Below, piece after piece: positions 3,511-37,700 of a stretch of 38,611 nt of DNA (position 1 is the stretch's first letter; the number at the start of each line of letters is the position of its first letter). The DNA lies in assembly GCF_004010195.1 (NCBI RefSeq), contig NC_057752.1, positions 7,033,971 through 7,072,581 on the forward strand. The letters are read 5' to 3'. A model generated the notes under the pieces. The model saw nothing but the letters and a program-made list of their open reading frames with translations, was not told the DNA's origin and did no database searches. Source of the stretch: Chiloscyllium plagiosum. Lineage: Eukaryota. A program made the position numbers and the translations under genes.

Positions 3511-3514
3511 TCAT

Positions 3515-3811
3515 TAGATTAGATTAGCGATAGTGTGGAAACAGGCCCTTCGGCCCAACCAGTCCACACCGCCCCTCCGAAGAGAAACCCACCCAAACCC
3601 CTGACTAACACACCCAACACTGTGGGCAATTTTAGCATGACCAATTCACCTGACCTGCACATCTTTGGATTGTGGGAGGAAATCAGAGCACCCAGAGGAA
3701 ACCCAGACAGACACGGGGAGAAAGTGCAAACTCCACACAGACAGGCGGGAATCGAACCCAGGACCCTGGTGCTGTGAGGCAGCAGTGCTAACCACTGAGC
3801 CACCGTGCCAC
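3515..3811 (-). mobile_element. HE1-type tRNA-derived V-SINE
   Basis: A box TGGCTCAGTGG, B box GGTTCGATTCC, V-domain-like TGTGTGGAGTTTGCAC..TCTCCCCGTGTCT, CR1-like 3' end and (AATCT)n tail. Confidence 0.9.
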
Positions 3812-5143
3812 CTTATTCATTAAAAAAATCAAACATGTCCCCAGACAATTCATTTACCTAGAAACAAAACCAGCACGCTGCATACGGAGTGCTCTACTGC
3901 ACCCTGGACAATATTTAAACCCAGAAATGATGCTGATCATTTATTTCATTGCTGTTTGTGGACACTTGCTTTGCTCATGTGGTGTGTATGTAGCATTGGC
4001 AGTTCAGAAGAACTTCAGTGGCTATAAGGTCCTTTAGGATGTCCTGAGGTTGTGGAAAAAACACTCAAATACAAGAATTTCTCTTCAAAATTAAGTTATA
4101 AATGTGAGTTATTTGAACACAGATGAGACTATATAAAACTATGGAAACTACAAAACAATCCTCTGTACAGCCTATATTATTTAACAAAAAGAGAAGGGTA
4201 CCTGGTTCAGCTTGTCCAGCTCAGCCTCCCAAAACAAAAAAAAAATCCCAATAATTGGCTAATTTTCATTTACATGGTTGGATAAATCTCAGAAACACTT
4301 CCATTGTTGTGCTGTTCTAAAATACAAAATTATCTTGGAGATGACCATAAGCACTGAACCAGTGCCATCAGGTGGCCAGAAATGACAGTGCAAGAAATTA
4401 AAAACAAAAAAAAGCTCAAATAGTCTACAGATCAGGTGGCACTTGAGGAGAGAAAAACCAAGTTAACTATCTGATGGATAACATCGACATGAGGCTCCAT
4501 AATGTTGGAGATCCTTCTTTCAGTGCCCACCTTCTTATCATTAGTGTTGTGCACAAGTTTCTCCTGCAGGAAGATTGAATTAATGAGATGAAGACTGGCA
4601 CAGGTCAACTGTCTCCTAGGTAGCATTGAGATCTGGCAGCTTCTGACTAGAGGCTGAGCCATCTGGCGCAGATGTGATGAGCTGAATGACCTCCTGCTAT
4701 GATGTATTATTTTATAATTTGAGGTTTTCAATAAATAAGCAATCAGGAGCACCTGTAAACAGGGCTTCCCAAAGTGGGGATCAAGATGTCAAATGGGGTC
4801 ACATTAGAATTTTGGAGTTGCAAGATCCATAAGCAGTAATATCTGCTGTGGAGATCCAGAAAAAGTTAGTAACGGGTTCTGTCTCTCTCTCTCATTCACT
4901 GAAGAGTTGTAATAACATTTAAACCTCAAAATGGGGTTACAACAGGAAAACATTTGTGAAACACTGGTCCAAGGACAGTGTTTGCTTTTCTGAAGTAGTA
5001 ATGTTTAACCAGAACTGTTGATGTCATTTTTCTTTTCACAGATGTTGCCAAAACGGAGTGTTTCCAGTCCAGCATGTTGTTTTCATTCCATAAAGGATTA
5101 CACTGGAGTGTCCCCATGTTGTCAACAGAACCAATTTTACACT

Positions 5144-11952: not shown

Positions 11953-12271
11953 TAGATTAGATTAGGTTCCCTACAGTGTGGAAACAAGCCCTTCGGCCCA
12001 ACAAGTCCACACCGACCCTCTGAAGTCACCCACCCAGACCCATTTCCCTCTGACTAATGCACCTAACACAATGGGCAATTTAGCATGGCCAATTCACCTG
12101 ACCGGCACATCTTTGGATTATGGGAGGAAACTGGAGCACTCGGAGGAAACCCACGCAGACACGGGGAGAATGTGCAAACTCCACACAGACAATCACCCGA
12201 GGCTGGAATCAAACCCGGGTCCCTGGCGCTGTGAGGTAGCAGTGCTAACCACTGAGCCACAGTGCCGCCCC
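11953..12271 (-). mobile_element. HE1-type V-SINE, full length, with probable TSD
   Basis: Same head, V domain and tail as 3515-3811. Flanked by AGAGTCATAAA (11942-11952) and AGAGTCACAAA (12274-12284). Confidence 0.9.
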
Positions 12272-12284
12272 TAAGAGTCACAAA

Positions 12285-12520: not shown

Positions 12521-12736
12521 TCTTTAAAGAGAGCTGAAGGGCTTTGAAAAAAATGCATCAATACAGATGGCATCAGTTTCTCCTCATCCACTCTATCCAG
12601 TCCACTTGTGATTTTGAAAACCTCTTTAAACCTCCTGTCCAGCCTTCTTCTCTCAAAGGAGAACAGTTCCAACTTCTTCAATAGAAGTTGCTGGAAAAGC
12701 TCAGCAGGTCTGGCAGCATCTGTGAAGAGAAATCAG

Positions 12737-12774
12737 AGTTAACGTTTCGGGTCTGGTAACCCTTCCTCAGAGTT
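12737..12774 (-). ncRNA. Minimal type I hammerhead-like motif (Penelope-associated); core intact, stem I weak
   Basis: CTGAGGA-A-GGGT(TACCAG)ACCC-GAAA-CG-TT. The inverted twin at 14687-14725 has a perfect AGTT/AACT stem I but GAAA changed to AAAA. Confidence 0.55.
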
Positions 12775-12792
12775 GTTGACAGCTAGGAAAAT

Positions 12793-13114
12793 TTAAATTA
12801 AATTCCCCACAGTCCAGAAACAGGCCCTTCAGCCCAACAAGTCCATACTGACCCTCCAAAGAGTAACCCACCCAGATCCATTCCCCCAATCCCTACTAAT
12901 GCATCTATCACTATGGGACAATTTCCCATGGCCAACTCACCTAACCTGCACATCTTTGGACTGTGGGAGGAAACCGGAATACCTGGAGGAAAACGACACA
13001 GACATGGGAAGAATGTGCAAACTCCACGCAGACAGTAACCAGAGACTGGAATTGAACCCAGGTCCCTGGCACTGCGAGGCAACAATGCTAACCACTGAGC
13101 CGCCATGCTGCCCC
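12793..13114 (-). mobile_element. HE1-type V-SINE, full length
   Basis: Starts GGGGCAGCATGGCGGCTCAGTGG; B box GGTTCAATTCC; V domain; ends GGGGAATTTAATTTAA. Confidence 0.9.
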
Positions 13115-13177
13115 AAAAAATAATGACCCACCCAAACACTGCAAGCATCACTCATTGGCAAACCTCAACACTATGCT

Positions 13178-13251
13178 TGGACAGTGTGGGGATTGAACCC
13201 ATGACCTTGGCGTTATTAGCACCACGCTCTAATCATCTGAGCTAACCGACC
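13178..13251 (-). tRNA. tRNA-Ile(AAT)-derived copy, probably a pseudogene
   Basis: GGTCGGTTAGCTCAGATGATTAGAGCGTGGTGCTAATAACGCCAAGGTCATGGGTTCAATCCCCACACTGTCCA (74 nt) is colinear with vertebrate tRNA-Ile-AAT and has an intact anticodon arm. Defects: D-loop GG changed to GA, a T-T mismatch in the acceptor stem and an A-C mismatch in the T stem. Confidence 0.85.
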
Positions 13252-15899
13252 TACAGTCAGTTTACATGCAAAAGATAGGGTGGGGGAGGGGATAAGGAGT
13301 AAACAGAAGTTGGGGACAGAGCCCAAAGGGAGAGAGAAGAACAATTGGACAGACAAAAGAGTAGGGAACAATCTGGCTAGGAGAGTGATTAGCTGTTAAT
13401 GGAGGCTGTAAGTGGCTAACAATAGGTAGTGTGTAATGGCAGTCTATGTGAAAACAAGGCCAAGTGTGTGGGGTAGGGGGCTAGGACACAGGGGAGTTCA
13501 GCCCTAAAAGTATTGAACTCAATATTGAGTCTAGAGGGCTGCAGAGTCCTCAAGCAGAAAATTGAAGTGTTGTTCTTCCATCTTGTGCTGAGCTTCACCA
13601 GAACACTGGAGCAAGCCTGAGACAGAGATAGTGGCCAAAGAACAGGGTGGTGTGTTAAAGTGGCAGGCAACTGGAAGCTCAGGGTTTTTTTTGCAGGACA
13701 GAACGTAGATGTTCTGTGAAGCGGTCATCCAGTCTATGCTTCGTTTCCCCAATGTAGAGGAGACCACATTGTATGCAGCGAATGCAGTAGACTAGATTGT
13801 GTGAACTACAGGTAAAGTGCTGCTTCACCTGGAAGGTATCTTTGGGTCCTTGGATACTGAGGAGGGAGGAGGTAAATGGGCAGGTTTACACTTTCGACAG
13901 TTGCAGAGGAGGTGTCGTAGGGCTGTGGGGTGGGGATGCTGAGAGTGAAGGAAGAGTGGACCAGGGTGTCCCAGAGGGAACTGTCCCCACGGGAGGTGGA
14001 CAAGGGATGGGAGGTAAATGTGCGTGTCTGGTGGTGGCTGATGATCCTCTGGATGCGGATGTGGTGGAATGGGAGGTAAGGACATGGGAACCCTATCGCT
14101 ATTGCGGGAAGGAAGAGAGGGGGTGAGAGCGGAGGCTCCTTCTGAAACGTCCATGTTCTTCCTCAACAGAGGATTCCCCAGCACCTTTGTCAACAGGGCC
14201 CTCAACCGGGTCCAACCCATTTCCTGCACTTCCGCCCACCAGCTTCTACGTTCTGCTCCTCAAAAAATGGCCCTGAGCTTCCAGTTGCCTGCCACTTTAA
14301 CACACCCTTCCCTGCCCAACATCTCTGTCTCAGGCTTGCTGCAGTGCAACCTGGAAGAAAAACACCTTATTTTCTACTTGGGGACCCTGCAGCCCTCGGG
14401 ACTCTGTAGAGTTCAATAATTTTAGGGCCTGAACTCTCCCATTTCCCAGCCCCCTACCACACACACACCACACCTTATCACGCAGTCTGCCGTTACACAC
14501 TACCTATTGTTAACCACTAACAGTCTTCATTAACACCAATCACCCTCCCAGCCAGATTGTTATCCACTCCTTTGTCTGTCCAACTGTCTTCTCTCTCTCT
14601 TTGGGCTCTATCCCTACCTATCGTTTATTCCTTATCCCCTTCCCTCCCATCTTCTGCATGTAAACCAACATTTTCCTAGCTACCATCAGTTCTGAGGAAG
14701 GGTCAACAGAGCCAAAACGTTAACTTTAATTTCTCTTCACAGATGCTGCCAGACCTGTTGAGCTTTTCCAGCAATTCTGTCTTTGTTTCTGATTTACAGC
14801 ATCTGCAGGTCTTTAGGGTTTTATTCCAACTTCTTCAACGTACCCTCATAACCAAGTTTCTCATTCCCAGAGCCATCCTTGTAAGTCACTTCTGCACCTT
14901 CTTCAATGCAGTCACATCTTTCCTATAATGTGGTGTTCTTAATTGTACACAATACTCCAGCTGAGGTCGAACAAATGTCTTTAAGTTCAACATCACCTCC
15001 TTGCCTTCATACTCTTTGCCCTATTCACAAAAGCTAAGGATACTAAGCTTTATTAATTGCTCTCTCCATCTATCCGGCTACCTTTAATGATCTGTGGACA
15101 TATGCATCCAGGTCCCTCTGTTCCTTCAGAATTGTATGCTTATTTTATATTGTCTTTCCATACTCCTCCTACCAAAGTGTATTACCTCATATTTCTCTGT
15201 ATTGAACCTCATCTGCCTCCTATCCATCCACTCCACCAACTTGTCAATGTCCTTTTGGAATTCCACAGTGTTCCCCTCACAGTTTACAATTCTCCCAAGA
15301 TTAGTGTCATCTGCAAACTTTAAAATTGTTCCCTGCCCACCAAGTTCCAGATCATTTGTACAGATCAGGAAAAGGAAGGATGCCAATACCAACCCTTGGG
15401 GAACTGCACTACAAACCTTCCTCCAGCCCTAACAAGTATCCATTAACCCTTACTCTCCGTTTCCTATCACTCAGCCAATTTTGTATCCAAATTGCTACTG
15501 CCCCTTCTATACCATGATGCATAACTTTCCTTCCAAGTCTGTTGTGCAGCACTGTATCAAATACCTTCTGGAAATTCATGTAAACCACATCAACAGCATT
15601 GCTCAGCAAGTCGTTGTTGCTTCTTCAAAAAAAAACATCAGCAAGATTTCCCTCTCAGAAATCCATGTGGACTCTTTCTAATCAAACTACCCTTTTTCCA
15701 AAGTAACTACTTTGCCGATTAATTATTTCCAGAAGTTCTTCCCCAAAGTTAAACCGAATGGTCTGTCATTGCTGGGATTAGCCTTACAAGTTTCCTTACA
15801 CAAAGGTGAAATGTTGCAATTTCCCAGTCTTCTGGCACCTCCTCAGAGGAAGACTGAAACATTATGGTCAGCGTTCCCCAATTTCTACCCTCATTTCAT

Positions 15900-24554: not shown

Positions 24555-27180
24555 CTGGATGATAGACAGGCTTTGGGGAAGTCAGGAGGTGAGTTACTTG
24601 CCATGGCATTCCTAACCTCTAAACTGTTCTTGTAGCCACTGTGTTTATGTGGCAAGTCCAGTTGAGTTTCTGGCCAATGGTAACCCCAAGGATGTTGATA
24701 GTGGGGGATTCAATGATGGTAACACCATTGAATGTCATAGGGCAGTGGTTAGATTGTCTTTTGTTGGAGATGGTCATTACCTGGCATTTGTGTAGCGCGA
24801 ATATTACTTGCCACTTGTCAGCCCAAACCTGGATAATGTCCAAATCTTGTTGCATTTGGACATGGACTGCTTCAGTATCTGAGTCATGAATGGTACTGAA
24901 CATTGCACAATCAGCAAGCACCCCCACTTCTGACCTTATGGTGGAGGGAATATTATTTAGGAAGCAGCTGAAAATGTTTGGGGCAAGCACTCTATCCTGA
25001 GGAATTCCAGCAGAGATGTCATGGAGCTGAGATGACTGACCTCCAACAACCACAGCCTTCTTCCTTTGTGCCAGGTATGACTCCAGCCAGAGAGTTTGCT
25101 CCCTGCTACTCAATGATTTCAAATTTGCAAGGGCTCCTTGATGCCACAGTCAAAAGTGACCTTCATGTCAAGGGCTCTAATCTCACGCATGGAATTCAGC
25201 TCTTTTGTCCACGTTTGATCCAAGGCAGTAATGAGGTCAGGAGCTGAGTGGCCCTGGTGGAACCCAAACTGGGCGTCACTGAGCAGGCGCTGCTTGATAG
25301 CACTGTTGATGACACCTTCCATCACTTTACTGATGACCAAGCATACACTGATAGGGCAGTAATTGGCCAGGTTGGATTTATCCTGCCATCTGTGTACAGG
25401 ACATACCTAGGGAAAGCCCACACAGTCAGTGTTTAAACTGCACTGAAAGAGCTTGACAAGGGGAGCAGCATGTTCTGGAGCACAAGTCTTCAGAACTATT
25501 GGAATGTTTTCAGGGCTCATAGCCTTTGCACTGTCCAGTGCCAGCAACCATTTATTCATATCATGTGGAGTGAAAAGAATTGGCTGAAAACTGGTATCTG
25601 TGATGCTGGGGACCACTGGAGGAAGCAGAGATGGATCATCCACTTGCCACTTCTGGCTGAAGATTGTTATGAATGCTTCAGCCTTATCTTTTACACTGAT
25701 TTGTTGGATCTTGCATCATTGAGGATTGGGATATTTGTGGTTGTTTAATAGTCCACTACCATTCATGACTGGATCTGGCAGAACTTCAGAGCTTAGATTT
25801 GATCCATTAGTTGTGGGATTGCTGATTTCTTCATATCACTTGCTGTTTGACATGCAAGTAGTCCTGTTTTGTAAGATTCACCAGATTGACACCTCATTTT
25901 TAGGTATGCCTGTAGCTTCTGCTGCTCCTGCCATGCCCTCCTGCACTCTCCATTGAACCAGCATTGATCCCCGGCTCGATGGTAATGGTTGAGTGTGAGA
26001 TACACCAGGCTAGGAGGTTACAGATTGTGCTGGAGTACAATTCTGTCGCTGTTGATAGCCCACAGTGCCTCATGGATGCCCAGTCTTGAATTGCTAGATC
26101 TGTTTGAAGTCCGGCTCATTTAGCACAGTGATAGTGCCACACAGTATGATGGAGAGTATTCTCAACGTGAGTGGGATTCCATTCACACAATGACTGTGTG
26201 GTGGTCACTCTGACATGATGCGGTCATAGACAGATGCATCTGGAGCTGAGGGCAGATTGGTAAGGATGAGGTCAGGTTTATTTTTCCCTCTTGTTGGTTC
26301 CCTCACTACCTGCCACAGACCCAGTCTAGCAGCTATGTCCTTTATGACCTGACTAGCTCAATCAGTAGTATTGCTGCCAAGCCACTCGGTGCTGGATATT
26401 GAAATCCCTCACCCAGAGTACATTCTGTGCCCTTGCCATCCTCAGTGCTTCCTCCAAGTATTGTTCAACATGGTGGGGCATTGATTCATCAGCCAAGGGA
26501 GGACAATACATGGTAGATCAGTAGGAGTTTTCCTTGCCCATGCTTAACCTGAAGCCATGAGACTTCATGGATTGAGGTTGAACATTGTATACAGTTGCCC
26601 TCTGAGTCAATGTGCCACTACTGCTTGGTCTGTCCCGTTGGTGAGAAAATCAGGGATGGTGATGATGGTGTCAAGGATATAGTCATCCTCATAAAATCAT
26701 ACCTTACAGACAATGTCAGGCTGTTGCTTAATTACCCTGGGAGACAGCTCTCCCAATTTTGGCACGAGCCCCATATCAGTAAGGACGACTTTGCAAGGGC
26801 TGTTTGTGCCATTGTCTTTTCTGATGCCTAGGCCAATGTCAGTTGGTCCATCTGTTTCACTTCTTTGTTGAAACGTCATAGTGATTGATACAACAGAGTC
26901 ACTTCCTGGGCCATTTCAGAGGACTTTGAGAGTCAACTACATCTGTGGATCTGACCAGGTAGTCCAGACCAGGTAAGGATGGCAGTTTGCTTCCCTAAAG
27001 GACATTAGTGAACCAGATGAGTTTTTCTGACAATCGACAATAGATCCATGGTCATCAGTGGATTTTCAATTCCAGTTTTTAAAATTTAAATACCACCATC
27101 TGCCACGGCTGGATTCGAGCCTGGGTCCCAAAGTTTCTGGATTAATAGTCTAGTGATAATACCACTAGGCCATTGCCTCC
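24555..27180 (-). mobile_element. CR1/L2-group LINE (EN+RT, decayed) with a tRNA-like 5' head
   Basis: Head GGAGGCAATGGCCTAGTGG...GGCTCGAATCC (27180-27111). EN start GLVPKLGELS..KQQPDIV. RT relics LKTCAPEHAAPLVKLFQ, QFGFHQGHSAPDLITAL and WADKWQVIF. Confidence 0.8.
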
Positions 27181-29454: not shown

Positions 29455-32400
29455 TCAGTTGAGTTTCTGGTCAACGTTGACCTCAAGGACGTTGATAGTG
29501 AAGGACTCACTGATGGTAACACCATTGAATATCAAGATCAACAGTTAGATTGTCTCTTGTTGGAGATGGTCATTGCTTGGCATTTGTGTGGCGCAAATGT
29601 TACTTGCCACTTGTCAGCCCAAGTCTGGAATATTGTACAGATCTTGTTGCATTTTTGAACATGGACTGCTTCAGTATCTGAGAAGTCATGAATGATACTG
29701 AACATTGTGCAATCAATCATCGGTGAACAACCCCACTTTGGACCTTATAATGGAGGGAAGGTCATTGATGAAGCAGCTGGAAATGGTTGGGCCTAGAACA
29801 CTACCCTGAAGAACTCCCACAGATATGTCCTGGAGCTGAGATGACTGACCTCCAACATCCACAACCATCTTCCTCTGTGATAGGTATGACTTCAACTTGG
29901 GGAGATTTTCATCCCCAACCGAGCAACTGCCACAGACTCTAGTTTTTTTAAAGATATTTTTATTGAAAAAAAATTTCTTTTACAAAATTATAAAATACAA
30001 AAACGTGGAAACAGTGTAACAACAACAACAATAAACAACAAACCAACTACTATACTAAAAGAACTCACAACTACACTCATTACACATCAATAAATAAATA
30101 AGTAAATAACGCTGCTCAGCGTAACAAGACCATAGCTCTCAACCTTCGAGGGCATCAATTATTACGTTTGCTCTAAATTCTTCCTTTCAGGACATTAGGC
30201 TTACTAAACCAAACCACTGTGGCTAGACAAAAGCACTAATTAAAATGGCAGACAGATTTGCTTCCAAATAATTCAAAAAGGGCTGCCATGTCTTGTAAAA
30301 ATTGTCCGTTTTCTGGTGCACCATATTTGTAAGAAAGTCCAAAGGAATGTGTTCCATAATTAACTTATGCCACCCCGACAGACCCGGGGGGTTCTCAGAT
30401 ACCCAGCACATCAGAATGTTCTTCCTCACACAAAAAGTGAGGATGCTAAAAAGCCTTCTCCCATGTATAGGTAAGGGAGATAAATTCAGCAAACTCAGGA
30501 GAAGAGAAACAGGGTCCACCTTGACTTCGGTCCCCAAGACCCTCTCTATTATTCCTGCTACAGCACTCCAGTATACACGGAGCCTGTGGCAAGATCACAA
30601 ACGATGGGTGTGAGGGTACCTATATTTATTTTACATTTGGGGCACATTGAAGGTGCTCCCTGCTTAAATTTTGCAAGACCATCTGGGGCCAGATGAGCCC
30701 AATGAAGAATCTTTAACTGCATAGCAGGGGTCCTGCTACATATCAAACTCTACCTCACATTCTTACAAATGTCCTCCCATGTTTCGGGAGTGATCTCCAC
30801 CCCTACCTCTCTCTCCCAGACCTTCCATAATCGCTCAATGTCACCCGAGGAACCTCCCCCCAACAAATGATAGACAGTACTCACTGAAAGAGTGATCCTA
30901 GCCTGAAGCACCTTCTTTTCCGTATCAGATCTATAACACTCAGTCAAAAGCATGGTCTCCTATCGGACAAAATCTCTGATCTGAAAAATACGGAAGAGGA
31001 CCTGACTCGATAATCCTTACTTACGAGTTATTTGATCAAATGATGTTAATGTTTCATCTTCAAACAGGTCACCCAAACAAGAGACTCCCCTATCTGCCCA
31101 GGACGTAAACCCGGGATCCACTGTTCCTGGTTGGAAATGTGGCATACCGATTATGGGAGTATGGAAAGATGTTTTAGACATATTACCCTCCATCTGTCTC
31201 ATTGCCCTCCATGCTTTGACAGTGTTAATAACTATTGGATTGCGGCAGTGTTCTGCAACTATCCTCACTTTGTCCATAAACAACAGGTTAATAAGAGGAG
31301 GCCTCTTATTAACACTCTGCCTGGGAGGCCTCAATGTCCAACCACATCGACGCAGAGTCCTCACAGGCCCAATCACTCTCAAAAAATAGAAGGGAGCTCA
31401 ACTGATATCTTCTGACATCCAGGAGATCCACTCCTCCCAACTCCTGGAGTATTTGCAATTTTGTAAGCTTGATAAGGGGCCACTTATGATACCAAATAAA
31501 AGAACTAAACCAATCATTTAATTTCCGAAACGTTTGTCTCAGAAAAAGCAAGGGAAGCATCCACAGAGGGTATAATAAGCGAGAAAGAACATGCATTTCA
31601 ATAAGAGCAATTCGACCTAGCCATGATATTAGAAGGGCCTCCCATCTTTGACGGTCTTGTTTAATCTTGTGAAACAAATAAATAAAATTAGCCTTGAATA
31701 ACTGATCAAAACTGGGGGTAACAGAGAGACCCAAATAAAGAAAGCTTCCCTGTGCCCCCTTAAAGCTTCCCTGTGCCCACCTTCAACGTCCAGAATTCCC
31801 CTAAGACCCCTCCATAGGCATAGCGTCCAACTTTGAAAAATTGATCTTGTAACCTGAGAAAAAGTCAAACGAACTAATACACCGTATCAAACAGGGCACA
31901 GAAACTGCCGGGTTCGAAAGAAAAATGAGAACATCATCCACATATAATGCGATCTCAAGCACCTTCGACCCCACCTTTGGGGCAGCTATATTAGGGTCCC
32001 CACGAATGGCCTCCGCCAATGGCTCAATCACCAATGTGAAAAGCAAAGGTGAAAGGGGACAGCCTTGCCGACTGCCCCTACCAGTGTTAAAATTAGCAGA
32101 CCTTATACCATTGGTGAGAACCGCTGCCAGAGAATCCTTACCAATCTAGTAAACACTTCACCCAGGCCAAACCGCTCCAGAGTATAAAAAAGATGTGGCC
32201 ATTCCACCCAATCAAATGCTTTCTCCCCATCCAAGGAGACCACCAACCCTTGAACCAATCGCTGCTGGCACAGCAACCTCCTAACATTATTAGAAGATCT
32301 TTATAAAGCCCATCTGATCCTTCTTTACAATAGAGGGCAACCTTTCCAACCTCAATTCCAGAGTCTTTGATAAAATTTTAAAATCAGAGTTTAAAAGCGA

Positions 32401-34150
32401 GATGGGTCTGTAAGAACCAGAGTCCTCCCCTTTCTTGAGGATAAGGCAAATATTAGCCTCTCTCAAGGATGGCGGGAGGCAATCCCAACTATATGAATAG
32501 TTATAAATGTCGAGCATCGGCCCTAACAGTATGTTTACAAATTCTTTATAAAACTCACTGGGCCAGCCATCAGAGCCGGGTGCCTTTCCACTTTGAAGCT
32601 GCCTCACTGCCTCCTGGATCTCTTCAGCTGTTAACGGAGCACTAAGGAGAGACGCCTGCTCAGCAGTCATACCGGGAAGATCCAAATTCCTAAAAAAAAG
32701 ACTCCATCTTATCCCATCTGTCCTCACAGCATTCAGACTGGTAAAGTTCAGAGTAAAACCTCTGAAATGCCTCATTGATATTTTTACCATCAAAAGAGTC
32801 CCATTCCCTTCCCTAATAGAAGCAATAGACTGGGAGGTATTCTTCTTCCTAAGCAGACATGCCAAATATTTACCCACCCTATCACCATGCTTAAACAGCC
32901 TCTGCTTTGTAAAGGAAAGTTCCTTCCTGGCTGTATGCGTAAGCATGAAGTTTAAGGTGAATCGAAGGGCTATGATCCGCTGCAGCTCAGTCAGTGATGA
33001 TCTACTGTAATATGCCGTCTCAACTGCCTTCAATCATGCCTCAAGCAGACACTGCTGCACTCCCTTCCGTCACTTCTGGCTGGCAGAGTATGAGGTAATT
33101 ATCCCTCTAGCATAGGCCTTAATAGTCTCCCAAACAACGGACGGATTACCAGCTGTACCAGAGTTGGTGGCTAAAAAAGCTTCACACTCCTAGAGAGATA
33201 TTGTACAAACTTGCTGTCCTTGAGAATGAAGGGATCTAATCATCAGTACCGTGAGCCCATTGCATCACCCTTAAGCTTAACCATTAATTATACTGCTGCA
33301 TGATCAGAGATGGCAATATTCCCAACTGAACATCCACTTGCCACTTCTGGCTGAAGATTATTGTGAATGCTTCAGTCTTAACTTTTGCAATGACGTGTTG
33401 GGTCTTCCAATGAGGATGGGGATATTTGTGGAGCCTCCTCCTCCACGAGAGTTGGATTTGGTGGGATTGCAGAGCTTAGATCTGATCCGTTGCTTGTGGG
33501 ATCACTTAGCTCTGTCTATCACTTGCTTATGCTGTTTGATGGCTTCACCAGGTTGACACCTCATTTTCAGGAATGACTGCTGCTGCTCCTGGCATGCCCT
33601 CCTGCACTCTCCATTGAACCAGAGTTGATCCCTGGCTCGATGGTAATGGTTGAGTGGGAGATAAAGCAGGCCACGAGGTTACAGATTGCACTAGAGTACG
33701 ATTCTACTGCTGTTAATGGCTCACAGCACCTCATGGATGCCCAGTCTTGAGATGCTAGATCTGTTTGAAGTCTGTCCCATTTAGCACAGTGATAGTGCCA
33801 CACAACACAATTGAAGTTATTGTCAATGTGGTGAGACTTCACCTCCACAAAGACAGTGTGGTGGTCACTCTTACCAACACTGTCATGGACAGGTGTGTCT
33901 GCAGCCAGCAGATTGCTAAGGATGAGTCAAGTATGTTTTTCATTCTTATTGGTTTGGTCATCACCTTCCGTAGACCCAGTCTAGCAGCTATGTCCTTTAG
34001 GACCCAACCAGCTTGGTCAGTAGTACTGCTGCTATTGAGCCACTTTTGGTAGAGTCTCCCATCCAGTATTTTGTGCCTGTCCCACTCTCAGTACTTCCTC
34101 TGTGTGGACTTCATAGGGTCTGGATTCAATGTTGAGGACTTACAGGGTGG
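29455..34150 (-). mobile_element. Second copy of the CR1/L2-group LINE, split by L1 (pieces about 29455-29920 and 33328-34150)
   Basis: QGSVLGPTISSCFINDLPS...LFTDD. The pieces align with about 24660-25100 and 25636-26590. Confidence 0.85.
29943..33327 (-). mobile_element. 5'-truncated L1-clade LINE ORF2 pseudogene (about 3.4 kb), sense to CDK2 in intron 1
   Basis: Contains the EN end (IAISDHAA), GKAPGSDG...SYRPISLLNSDFKILSK, RQGCPLSP, LYVDDVLIFL and GYKINFSK, and a C-terminal CPKC. AATAAA at 29964-29959 is followed by a short A tail. Many frameshifts. Confidence 0.9.
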
Positions 34151-36203: not shown

Positions 36204-36331
36204 AAATCACACAACACCAAGTTATAGTCCAACAGGTTCATCTAGAAGCACTAGCTTTTGGAGCGTTGCTCCTTCATAAACTAGTGCTTCCAAATAAACC
36301 TGTTGAACTATAACCTGGCGTTGTGTGATTT
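36204..36331. repeat. Hairpin with 51-bp inverted arms (back-to-back Penelope termini)
   Basis: 36204-36254 pairs with 36281-36331. The loop contains a decayed hammerhead. Confidence 0.85.
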
Positions 36332-36680
36332 TTAACTTCGACCACCCCAGAACAAAACATGCACCTCCGAGTCATGAAACATTTTCGGTTGCCAAAAATC
36401 ATTACCAGTGCACACTGGCTGCTATAAATGCTTTTTTGACCCATTATTAGTATTGATAGTGATTTAGGACTCTTTCAAGAACCACAGTTTTTAAAATGAA
36501 AACTGTAAAAAATTGTAGTTTTGCACAATGCCTGGAGAGAGTTTACCATGTGAATTTTTGGAACTTGGAGGTCCAAAGTGGAACTGTTTTATACTTCACT
36601 TACTGTTTCCAAAAGATCAAGTGATCCTCAGAAAAGCAGAGCTGTTCAAAAAGGTGGATTTGCTAACTTTTGCTAGACAA

Positions 36681-37700
36681 AGTTAAAAATCACACAACAC
36701 CACGTTATAGTCCAACAGGTTTAATTGGAAGCACTAGCTTTCGGAACACTGCTCCTTCGTCAGGCGGTTGTGGAGGTTAAGATCATGCTCACAGAATTTA
36801 TAGCCAAAGGAGTTCAGTGTCATGGAGATGTGATCCAGTAAACAATCTTAGATTAAAACTTTCATCTTTTATAATGGGGATATGCTGGTTTCTGTTCTTT
36901 GATATGTAAATCCCAGAACTTCTTTTAAATTACATTCTCAAGATAGCTCAGCTTTTTAAACAATAGGTGTGAAGTCTGTCTGTGTCCCACTGCAATGTCA
37001 GACTGACAAACCCTCTGTGTAGTTTTACATGGACTCATGCAGTTTTTGAGCAAAATAAAATGTAATTCTGCAGAAACAGATTCACCCCATAAGCTTATAT
37101 GTGTGTGTATGTAGGAGCGACAGATTGAGTGGGCATGTGTGTGCTTGTGGGTGTGAGTACACGTGATAGAGTGTGTGTAAGCTTGGTTAAATTTGTGTGA
37201 GAGTGTGATGGGATATGTGTGAGAGGGTGCGTGTGTTAGTGTGAGTATGGGGGATGAATGTGTGTGCATGAGAGAGAGCTTGTGTGTGAGGGAGGGTTTG
37301 CATAGGTGTGTCAGCATGTAGGAGTGTGTGGGTGTGTGTGCGTGTGTGTGTATTGTGTAGTGGGGTCACCTGTAGTGTGACATGAACCCAAGGTCCCTGT
37401 TGAGGCCATCCCCATGGGTACCGAACTTTGCTATTGGCTTCTGTTCGGCCACTCTGTTGTTGCTTGTCCCGAAGTCCGCCTTGGAGGATGGTCACCCGAA
37501 GGTCCAAGGCTGAATGTCCCGCACCTCTGAAGTGTTCCCCAAATGGGAGGGAACACTCCTGTCTGGTGATTGTTGTGTGGTATCCATTCAACCGTTGTTA
37601 TAGCGCCTGCTTGGTCTCACCAATGTACCATGCCTCAGGGCATCCTTGCCTGCAGCATATGAGACAGATCACATTGGATAAGTTACATGAGGACTCGCCA
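36681..37700 (-). mobile_element. Penelope-like element of a second family, with internal TG-rich tract (about 37095-37360)
   Basis: CLICCRQGCPEAWYIGETKQAL..RLNGYH...LPFGEHF GIY-YIG relic. Its terminus matches the arm at 36204. Confidence 0.85.
36732..36766 (-). ncRNA. Minimal hammerhead motif with intact core (AGCT palindrome variant)
   Basis: CGC-CTGACGA-A-GGAGC(AGT)GTTCC-GAAA-GC-TA-GTG. Confidence 0.65.

Follow-up and report, generated by a model that had tools for sequence, protein, structure and literature searches.

The subject of this report is a composite insertion in the genome of the shark Chiloscyllium plagiosum, found within a stretch of 38,611 nucleotides (nt) that was analyzed as a whole and is hereafter called the window (contig NC_057752.1 of NCBI RefSeq assembly GCF_004010195.1, positions 7,033,971 to 7,072,581 of the forward strand). 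The insertion occupies positions 12793–13255 of the window and consists of an unprocessed precursor of tRNA-Ile(AAT) joined directly to the front of a short interspersed element (SINE). The locus itself is a dead passenger copy, and its interest lies in the genome-wide process that it exposes.

Structure of the insertion and its host

The insertion reads on the minus strand. It opens with a 4-nt 5′ leader of the pre-tRNA (TGTA, 13252–13255), which lies inside the boundary set by an uninterrupted copy of the host sequence described below. This leader is followed by tRNA-Ile(AAT) of an array-type variant without CCA (13178–13251) and by a 57-nt 3′ trailer without a T4 run (13121–13177), whose matches place it in an older subtype of the array trailer family. 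A run of six T residues (T6, 13115–13120) represents the copy of the precursor U-tail together with the junction, and still has the form of an RNA polymerase III (Pol III) terminator. The remainder is a full-length, tRNA-headed SINE of 322 nt that extends from its first base to its tail (12793–13114), such that the small RNA copy sits 5′ of the retroelement in the same orientation. The tRNA was called on the minus strand by ARAGORN and by Rfam (RF00005, 49.6 bits, full model), the latter being the sole match to this model in the window. The SINE aligns to a young copy over positions 1–312 of 315 and diverges by 13% from the majority sequence of 67 copies. This SINE is putatively HE1, a V-SINE. 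Elsewhere the window contains two further members of this SINE family that stand alone (3514–3826 and 11957–12274), both on the same strand as the chimera.

The host is a Penelope-like element, judged from its endonuclease end and its inverted arms. The arm to the left of the insertion (12688–12792) is 89% complementary to positions 14670–14774, while the arm to the right (13256–13698) is defined by inverted repeats I4, I7–I9, I11, I12 and I14. A remnant of a GIY-YIG endonuclease lies at 13682–13885 on the minus strand (Pfam PF01541, E 6e-5, 23.7 bits against a cut-off of 22.6), and the combination of this domain with inverted arms is as expected of a Penelope-like host. The opposing arm (14257–14774), identified from inverted repeats and alignment, is uninterrupted and shows the empty site around 14656–14681. 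When the insertion is cut out, flanks 12690–12792 and 13256–13460 abut exactly on 14470–14774 reversed, with zero bases lost or duplicated. Both parts of the insertion are absent from the empty arm, and no host base lies between the pre-tRNA and the SINE. Both the boundaries and minus-strand order given in the original prediction and its claim that excision restores the host are thus upheld by the sequence, by ARAGORN and Rfam, and by the arm alignment.

Fusions of tRNA-Ile across the genome

The genome was queried with the tRNA and trailer, with no SINE in the query, which gave 264 candidates, of which the best 40 were scored. A 33-letter pattern gave 137 matches, and the examination covered the 100 that were listed, leaving 37 outside it. 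The loci fetched yielded 104 distinct tRNA-Ile rows: 61 in which the tRNA is followed by a SINE head, 4 with a truncated SINE, 24 with other sequence, 10 array units and 5 canonical genes. Removal of three within-locus or duplicate rows (L117, L118, L120b) left 86 dispersed copies, the window copy included, of which 60 are fused to a SINE head, 4 to a truncated SINE and 22 are classed as other; some of these classes are loose, as L083 has only 35 nt of SINE and L075 was misfiled as other. The genome (3.56 Gb) contains at least 60,537 exact SINE heads, so that the chance of finding one within any particular 30-nt interval of a single strand is about 0.03%, or 0.13% if the copy number is assumed to be fivefold higher. 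Comparison of this expectation with the 60 of 86 observed indicates that the fusion is not due to chance. The original prediction had left room for a one-off event. This is ruled out by the at least 60 Ile/SINE fusions found in the genome searches and by other small RNAs fused in the same way. An exact 42-mer of the variant tRNA had just 3 matches.

Besides SINEs, the 3′ partners of the dispersed tRNA-Ile copies include pieces of long interspersed elements (LINEs) and further tRNAs. Pfam searches of six partner fragments were positive for three, with reverse transcriptase (RT) in L011 and L047 and endonuclease in L086; they were blank for L071, L027 and L044, where the LINE labels reflect our own reading of the translations. 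A second tRNA is the 3′ partner in L003 and L120, truncated SINE or LINE partners occur (L091, L129 and LINE fragments), and a few dispersed copies, such as L017 and L030, have no recognizable partner.

In L094, L027 and L044, a pre-tRNA-Ile is followed by a short LINE-like 3′ end (a label given by reading), which is the anatomy of a new SINE. The 3′ end of the window SINE gives modest local alignments to two of these three LINE-like ends (L094 and L044) and none to that of L027. In L073, L074 and L075 (C18: 60.94, 67.78 and 68.62 Mb), a tRNA-Ile that lacks a trailer meets the SINE body near position 83, constituting a head swap. Exactly three copies of this head-swap element exist in the genome, too few for a family. 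L074 and L075 match at 97% over the stretch that extends from a 9-nt leader to a T-run past the tail and have unrelated flanks, and a young SINE follows L075. These loci may represent a SINE family that never expanded, or a chimera that went through another round of transcription and copying.

The source array and the limits of the precursor

Ten of the tRNA-Ile rows run past a TTTT into a common flank, none of them with a SINE after the terminator, and seven of the ten also share upstream flanks. L045 is a tandem array with a period of about 2.3 kb, each unit of which contains a variant tRNA-Ile(AAT) gene. Units occur on C8 (49.69–49.70 Mb) and on many unplaced contigs (C100726, C100366, C95563, C101108 and others; at least 45 matches), and the array has probably been collapsed in the assembly. 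The array tRNA differs from the canonical Ile-AAT genes at eight positions, mostly preserving or improving stem pairing by our own reading, and the L045 tRNA scores 63.9 bits, which together suggest that this is probably a real isodecoder array. The array stretch was found in DNA-type sequencing runs of three organisms (shares up to 0.42); shares in RNA runs were 0.04–0.06 and provide no evidence of expression. The trailers of the five canonical Ile-AAT rows are unrelated, and none of these rows carries a SINE.

The dispersed copies retain the limits of a transcript. Across 58 5′-complete dispersed copies, the most frequent base accounts for 0.47–0.81 of copies at positions −1 to −5 and for 0.28–0.43 at −6 to −15. 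Homology among the dispersed copies starts 4–5 nt upstream of the tRNA and stops at a T-run that corresponds to the array terminator. The upstream flank of the array was found in none of them, and the only other flanks in common belong to three copies sitting in a single type of repeat and to two that lie behind SINE tails. The start at −4/−5, the end at the T-run and the unshared upstream flank mark out the span of a primary Pol III transcript.

The original prediction had expected the trailer to point to its source tRNA gene, an expectation that was not borne out. The window trailer was placed by BLAST at three sites only, L002 (91% identity) and L003 (81%) among them, and none of these is a SINE-free locus with gene flanks; a stricter pattern gave two matches. 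The window trailer is 55% identical to the present array trailer, related trailers occur at many loci, and a SINE-free source is known for the younger trailer type only, in the 2.3-kb array. No stable trailer fold was detected above shuffled sequences for either the window copy (z 0.39) or the array unit (z 0.25). When the copies were divided into three trailer classes, which were set by eye after the data had been seen, identity of the SINE to the young copy was 0.93 (array type), 0.89 and 0.85 (p 1e-5). The array appears to have turned over, and the window precursor would then derive from an array ancestor whose trailer has since changed. Array DNA from just upstream of the tRNA is also joined to a 44-bp satellite at L039, C1:152260106, C9:18856712 and C23:6264465, with identical match statistics at three chromosomes; this join could reflect either a duplication or an artefact of the assembly.

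Other small RNAs fused in the same way

Other tRNAs were sampled through 61 Rfam tRNA hits, from which 20 loci, chosen as dispersed and chromosomal, were fetched. Three are SINE chimeras: Thr-AGT (L147), Cys (L150) and Thr-TGT (L155, whose trailer spans about 130 nt). For each of them the 20 loci also include a relative that has the same trailer and no SINE (L148, L151 and L141, respectively). A generic pattern extending from the T-arm to the SINE head, with a gap of 16–26, gave 78 matches, compared with 42 for an antisense-tail control and 1 for a reversed-pattern control; the latter comparison (1 vs 78) overstates the effect, and only the tRNA-like subset counts. By our own reading, about 36 of the 78 sense matches are tRNA ends, as opposed to at most 1 of the 42 antisense-control matches, and most amino-acid labels among these matches are presumptive. 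Seven of eight fetched matches were called as tRNA by ARAGORN or Rfam. L168 retains an intron-length insert (92 nt); it might, however, be a gene, and its contig is unplaced. The commonest type among the short-trailer SINE fusions is tRNA-Pro-like. A 3′ motif that we take to be that of tRNA-Pro has 89 matches, many of them on unplaced contigs (about 40), and this distribution suggests a second, tRNA-Pro-like array.

The process extends beyond tRNAs. From 48 U6 hits, 20 loci containing 21 copies were fetched, with the C25 gene cluster left out, and a SINE follows the U-tail in seven of the 21 copies. At L122, L133, L137, L138, L126, L130 and L135, U6 is followed by Penelope-like or L1/Tx1-like sequence (labels by reading). 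A 5S junction pattern gave 16 matches, and all four of those fetched are full-length 5S rRNA. Fusion is thus a general process across pre-tRNAs, U6 and 5S rRNA.

Some fusions have three parts. L026 is made up of a young pre-tRNA, an old SINE-derived piece ending in TTTT and a young SINE (from the tRNA to +550), L120 joins a pre-tRNA to a pre-tRNA, and L125 joins a 5S-like end, U6 and a LINE-like tail. These composite loci, with L003 as a further example, point to two jumps in succession. In L026, the opening 21 nt of the precursor are also present a second time at the 5′ end. In L123 and L160, U6 lies directly in front of tRNA-Lys.

Independence of the fusions and the shape of the junction

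The relationships of the fused SINEs were examined in a star-like tree of 67 near-full SINEs, of which 46 are Ile-linked, 5 are U6-linked and 16 have neither Ile nor U6 upstream (two of the 16 being the second SINEs in L026 and L075). The Ile-linked SINEs are mixed with the 21 others, with 17 label changes on the tree compared with 18.1 after shuffling. A single clade of Ile-linked SINEs was rejected by the approximately unbiased (AU) test (p-AU 6.6e-5). Rare SINE changes are shared at 0.23 per Ile–Ile pair and 0.22 per Ile-free pair. L002, the closest relative of the window copy by trailer, shares 1 of 25 rare SINE changes with it and ranks 33rd of 50 in SINE identity. Junction 8-mers are also diverse, with 43 different sequences among 49, a figure partly inflated by decay and alignment offset.

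The lack of a single clade and of excess shared changes, together with the varied junctions, led to rejection of a dimeric SINE family. The window copy had also been considered as a possible founder of a dimeric subfamily, which is unlikely given that its T6 terminator is retained and that its closest trailer relative shares so few SINE changes with it. The placement of this terminator between the two heads is itself unlike a dimeric SINE. To judge from the sequences, each fusion copy has an independent origin.

The junction begins at SINE base 1 in 36 of 60 fusions, and in 9 more at position 10, which is ambiguous because of a repeat. Three or more T residues precede the SINE in 28 of 38 junctions, compared with 16% of 1,220 flank 10-mers. 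The modal length is three; seven of the 38 junctions have at least four T residues, 31 have fewer than four, and the T6 of the window copy is the longest.

Proposed mechanism

The core of the original prediction, in which a whole unprocessed pre-tRNA and SINE RNA or cDNA were inserted as one unit in the manner of U6/L1 chimeras, is supported by the evidence from the family as a whole. We propose, with a probability of roughly 0.65, that a LINE RT, on reaching the intact 5′ end of a SINE RNA, jumps end-to-end to a nascent Pol III transcript at its U-tail. The window copy would be the product of one retrotransposition event carried out by a LINE enzyme, putatively of the CR1 clade. Reverse transcription would be primed at a nick in the Penelope arm, on the SINE 3′ tail, and the SINE RNA would be copied to its first base. 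The enzyme would next jump end-to-end to an unprocessed pre-tRNA-Ile, entering this nascent transcript at its U-tail and copying it to its transcription start before the upstream DNA was joined. According to this scheme, joining would occur on the cDNA during insertion, and the same jump would have occurred many times in the lineage with other pre-tRNAs, U6 and 5S rRNA, and with LINE fragments as 3′ partner.

The chemistry of the RNA ends bears directly on this proposal. Pol III transcripts carry a 5′ triphosphate, and the 3′ ends of pre-tRNAs and 5S rRNA are hydroxyls. RtcB requires a 2′,3′-cyclic phosphate and a 5′-OH, according to PMC6789731, and a jump is consequently favored over RtcB ligation by these ends together with the frequency of junctions at SINE base 1. 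The RT of R2 adds mainly untemplated A residues, which are needed for its jump (PMC8857657). Such a requirement would favor U-tails as acceptors, and untemplated A residues may have paired with the U-tail here.

The same fusions could also be produced if RtcB or another ligase first joined the U-tail of the pre-tRNA to SINE or LINE RNA and the chimeric RNA was then retrotransposed by way of the SINE tail. Ligation yields the same product as that of the U6 chimeras, which are common here (7/21), and it can draw on truncated partners of the kind seen in L091, L129 and the LINE fragments. Most partners, however, start at or beside SINE base 1 and not at internal cleavage sites, and no cyclic phosphate is known at the ends of pre-tRNAs and 5S rRNA. 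Although ligation is a demonstrated route in human cells, PMC6789731 itself leaves an RtcB-independent route for non-U6 RNAs open, and we consider ligation unlikely in the present case. A further possibility is that a SINE lay at the terminator of a tRNA-Ile gene and that the read-through RNA was amplified from one or a few dimeric masters. The original prediction had named a trailer match with an adjacent SINE as the sign of read-through, and the best match, L002, does carry one; furthermore, the junctions with fewer than four T residues could be read through, and masters lost with older versions of the array would now be invisible. These points are outweighed by the rejection of a single clade, the absence of excess shared changes, the differing junctions, the distance between the L002 and window SINEs, and the absence of a SINE from every array row. 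In addition, the T6 of the window copy should stop Pol III, and the LINE, tRNA, U6 and 5S partners would go unexplained. Read-through from dimeric masters is largely refuted for the family as a whole, and overall is very improbable.

The two parts could instead have arrived separately, with a tailless pre-tRNA retrocopy inserting first and a SINE later being targeted to its T-run. Such a history would fit the lack of a target-site duplication tying the parts together, the T-rich 5′ flanks of some free SINEs and the few dispersed copies with no recognizable partner. It would require several hundred-fold targeting, and it has to contend with the single orientation of the partners (about 36 of 78 sense against at most 1 of 42 antisense matches that read as tRNA ends) and with the fact that genes with the same terminators (the array rows, L141, L148 and L151) have not been struck. 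Two insertions at one site are rated slightly lower again.

Several observations weigh against an end-to-end jump by a LINE RT. Alignment of the flanks to the empty arm revealed neither a target-site duplication nor a deletion around the whole unit. Among the trailer matches in the assembly there is no SINE-free gene with the window trailer, and the nearest match is itself fused to a SINE. Trailer identity to the array shows no overall correlation with SINE age (rho 0.06, p 0.66), and bootstrap support on the star-like SINE tree did not settle. Part of the T signal may reflect a general joining preference, as 4 of 14 free SINEs also have three or more T residues at the 5′ junction. L160 keeps the downstream gene flank of tRNA-Lys, common to L158, where the simple model predicts none. 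Finally, PMC8857657 suggests that jumping may be dispensable in vivo, and comparable U6/L1 chimeras in human cells were shown to arise by ligation (PMC6789731), the sole route shown in cells.

Significance

The fusions provide a natural record of the step by which mobile elements have long been proposed to acquire new heads. How SINEs come by their tRNA heads, and whether small-RNA chimeras are made by ligation or template switching, are long-standing questions for which the evidence has usually been isolated ancient cases. The present genome offers dozens of independent events whose ends are intact, so that they can be both counted and dated, and the chemistry of the ends separates the two models. 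Earlier states of a tRNA array that has changed since are recorded in the fusions as well, in the form of its old transcription starts, trailers and terminators. If an end-to-end jump is correct, they would constitute in-vivo evidence of a template-jumping route distinct from the RtcB route, as well as intermediates of SINE birth.

A broader and more tentative proposal, to which we give somewhat less than even odds, is that the LINE RT of this lineage routinely jumps end-to-end during insertion, sometimes twice in succession, between intact Pol III transcripts. The genome would then hold a datable archive of nascent germline Pol III transcripts, vanished versions of the tRNA array included, and a standing supply of proto-SINEs (tRNA with a LINE tail, tRNA with a SINE, and head swaps), a few of which would have been transcribed and copied again (L074/L075). 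Many tRNA loci have been reported in shark genomes (bioRxiv 10.1101/2025.06.08.657570). Some of these may be retrocopies of this kind, as 3 of the 20 high-scoring loci fetched here are SINE chimeras.

Other repeats in the window

Decayed copies of a LINE-like repeat occur at 24659–26377, 29456–29894 and 33328–34032 (direct repeats D2, D3, D5 and D7–D9). A short element is present three times at 36204–36758, twice as adjacent inverted arms 8 nt apart (I3, I5, D11). The long trailer of L141, a tRNA-Thr(TGT) gene, contains a stretch similar to this element.

Comparison with known systems

The closest parallels are the chimeric pseudogenes U6/L1, U6/L2, U6/Mon-1 (platypus) and U6/AnolisSINE2 (Doucet et al. 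2015, PMC4476161). The shark fusions resemble these in that a small Pol III RNA ending in a U-run lies in sense orientation 5′ of the retroelement, in that the events are independent and non-spreading, and in the occurrence of SINE partners and non-L1 clades. They differ in that the 5′ part is a whole unprocessed pre-tRNA, or also 5S rRNA, that most partners are SINEs intact from base 1, and that the window insertion lacks a target-site duplication. Such duplications are a feature of the L1 events and are short or absent in the L2 and RTE chimeras of that study, where pre-tRNA appears only as stand-alone retropseudogenes. The RtcB-ligated U6/L1 RNA (Moldovan et al. 2019, PMC6789731) is the same kind of bipartite product, but depends on a cyclic phosphate and a cleaved 5′-OH partner, neither of which is expected for a pre-tRNA and an intact SINE. 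HE1 and HER1 are listed for sharks and rays in PMC3747384.

Human tRNA/L1 and 5S/L1 chimeras (Law and Burns 2026, PMC13174262) likewise combine a tRNA or 5S rRNA with a retroelement in one event. The 21 human loci contain mostly tRNA halves, mostly antisense, and are read as twin priming, with duplications. In contrast, the shark genome has at least 60 cases for one tRNA, consisting of whole precursors in sense orientation, as found by searches that are blind to antisense halves. Some cases that are full-length and in sense orientation could be present in the chimera tables of PMC13174262 and PMC4476161.

A template switch onto a small RNA has been proposed as the source of new SINE heads for SINEU (Kojima 2015, PMC4494074) and in the study of TguSINE1, which is made up of tRNA-Ile and a CR1 tail, and PittSINE (Suh et al. 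2017, PMC5729268). Those elements are families amplified from a master copy, whereas the copies described here are un-amplified, each a single event with its leader and trailer still present. Recurrent chimeras of a whole pre-tRNA and a SINE were not found described in the literature searched, which left aside most subscription journals, Repbase reports and supplements. U6/SINE chimeras are already known, and what appears to be new is the recurrent fusion of whole pre-tRNAs onto a SINE.

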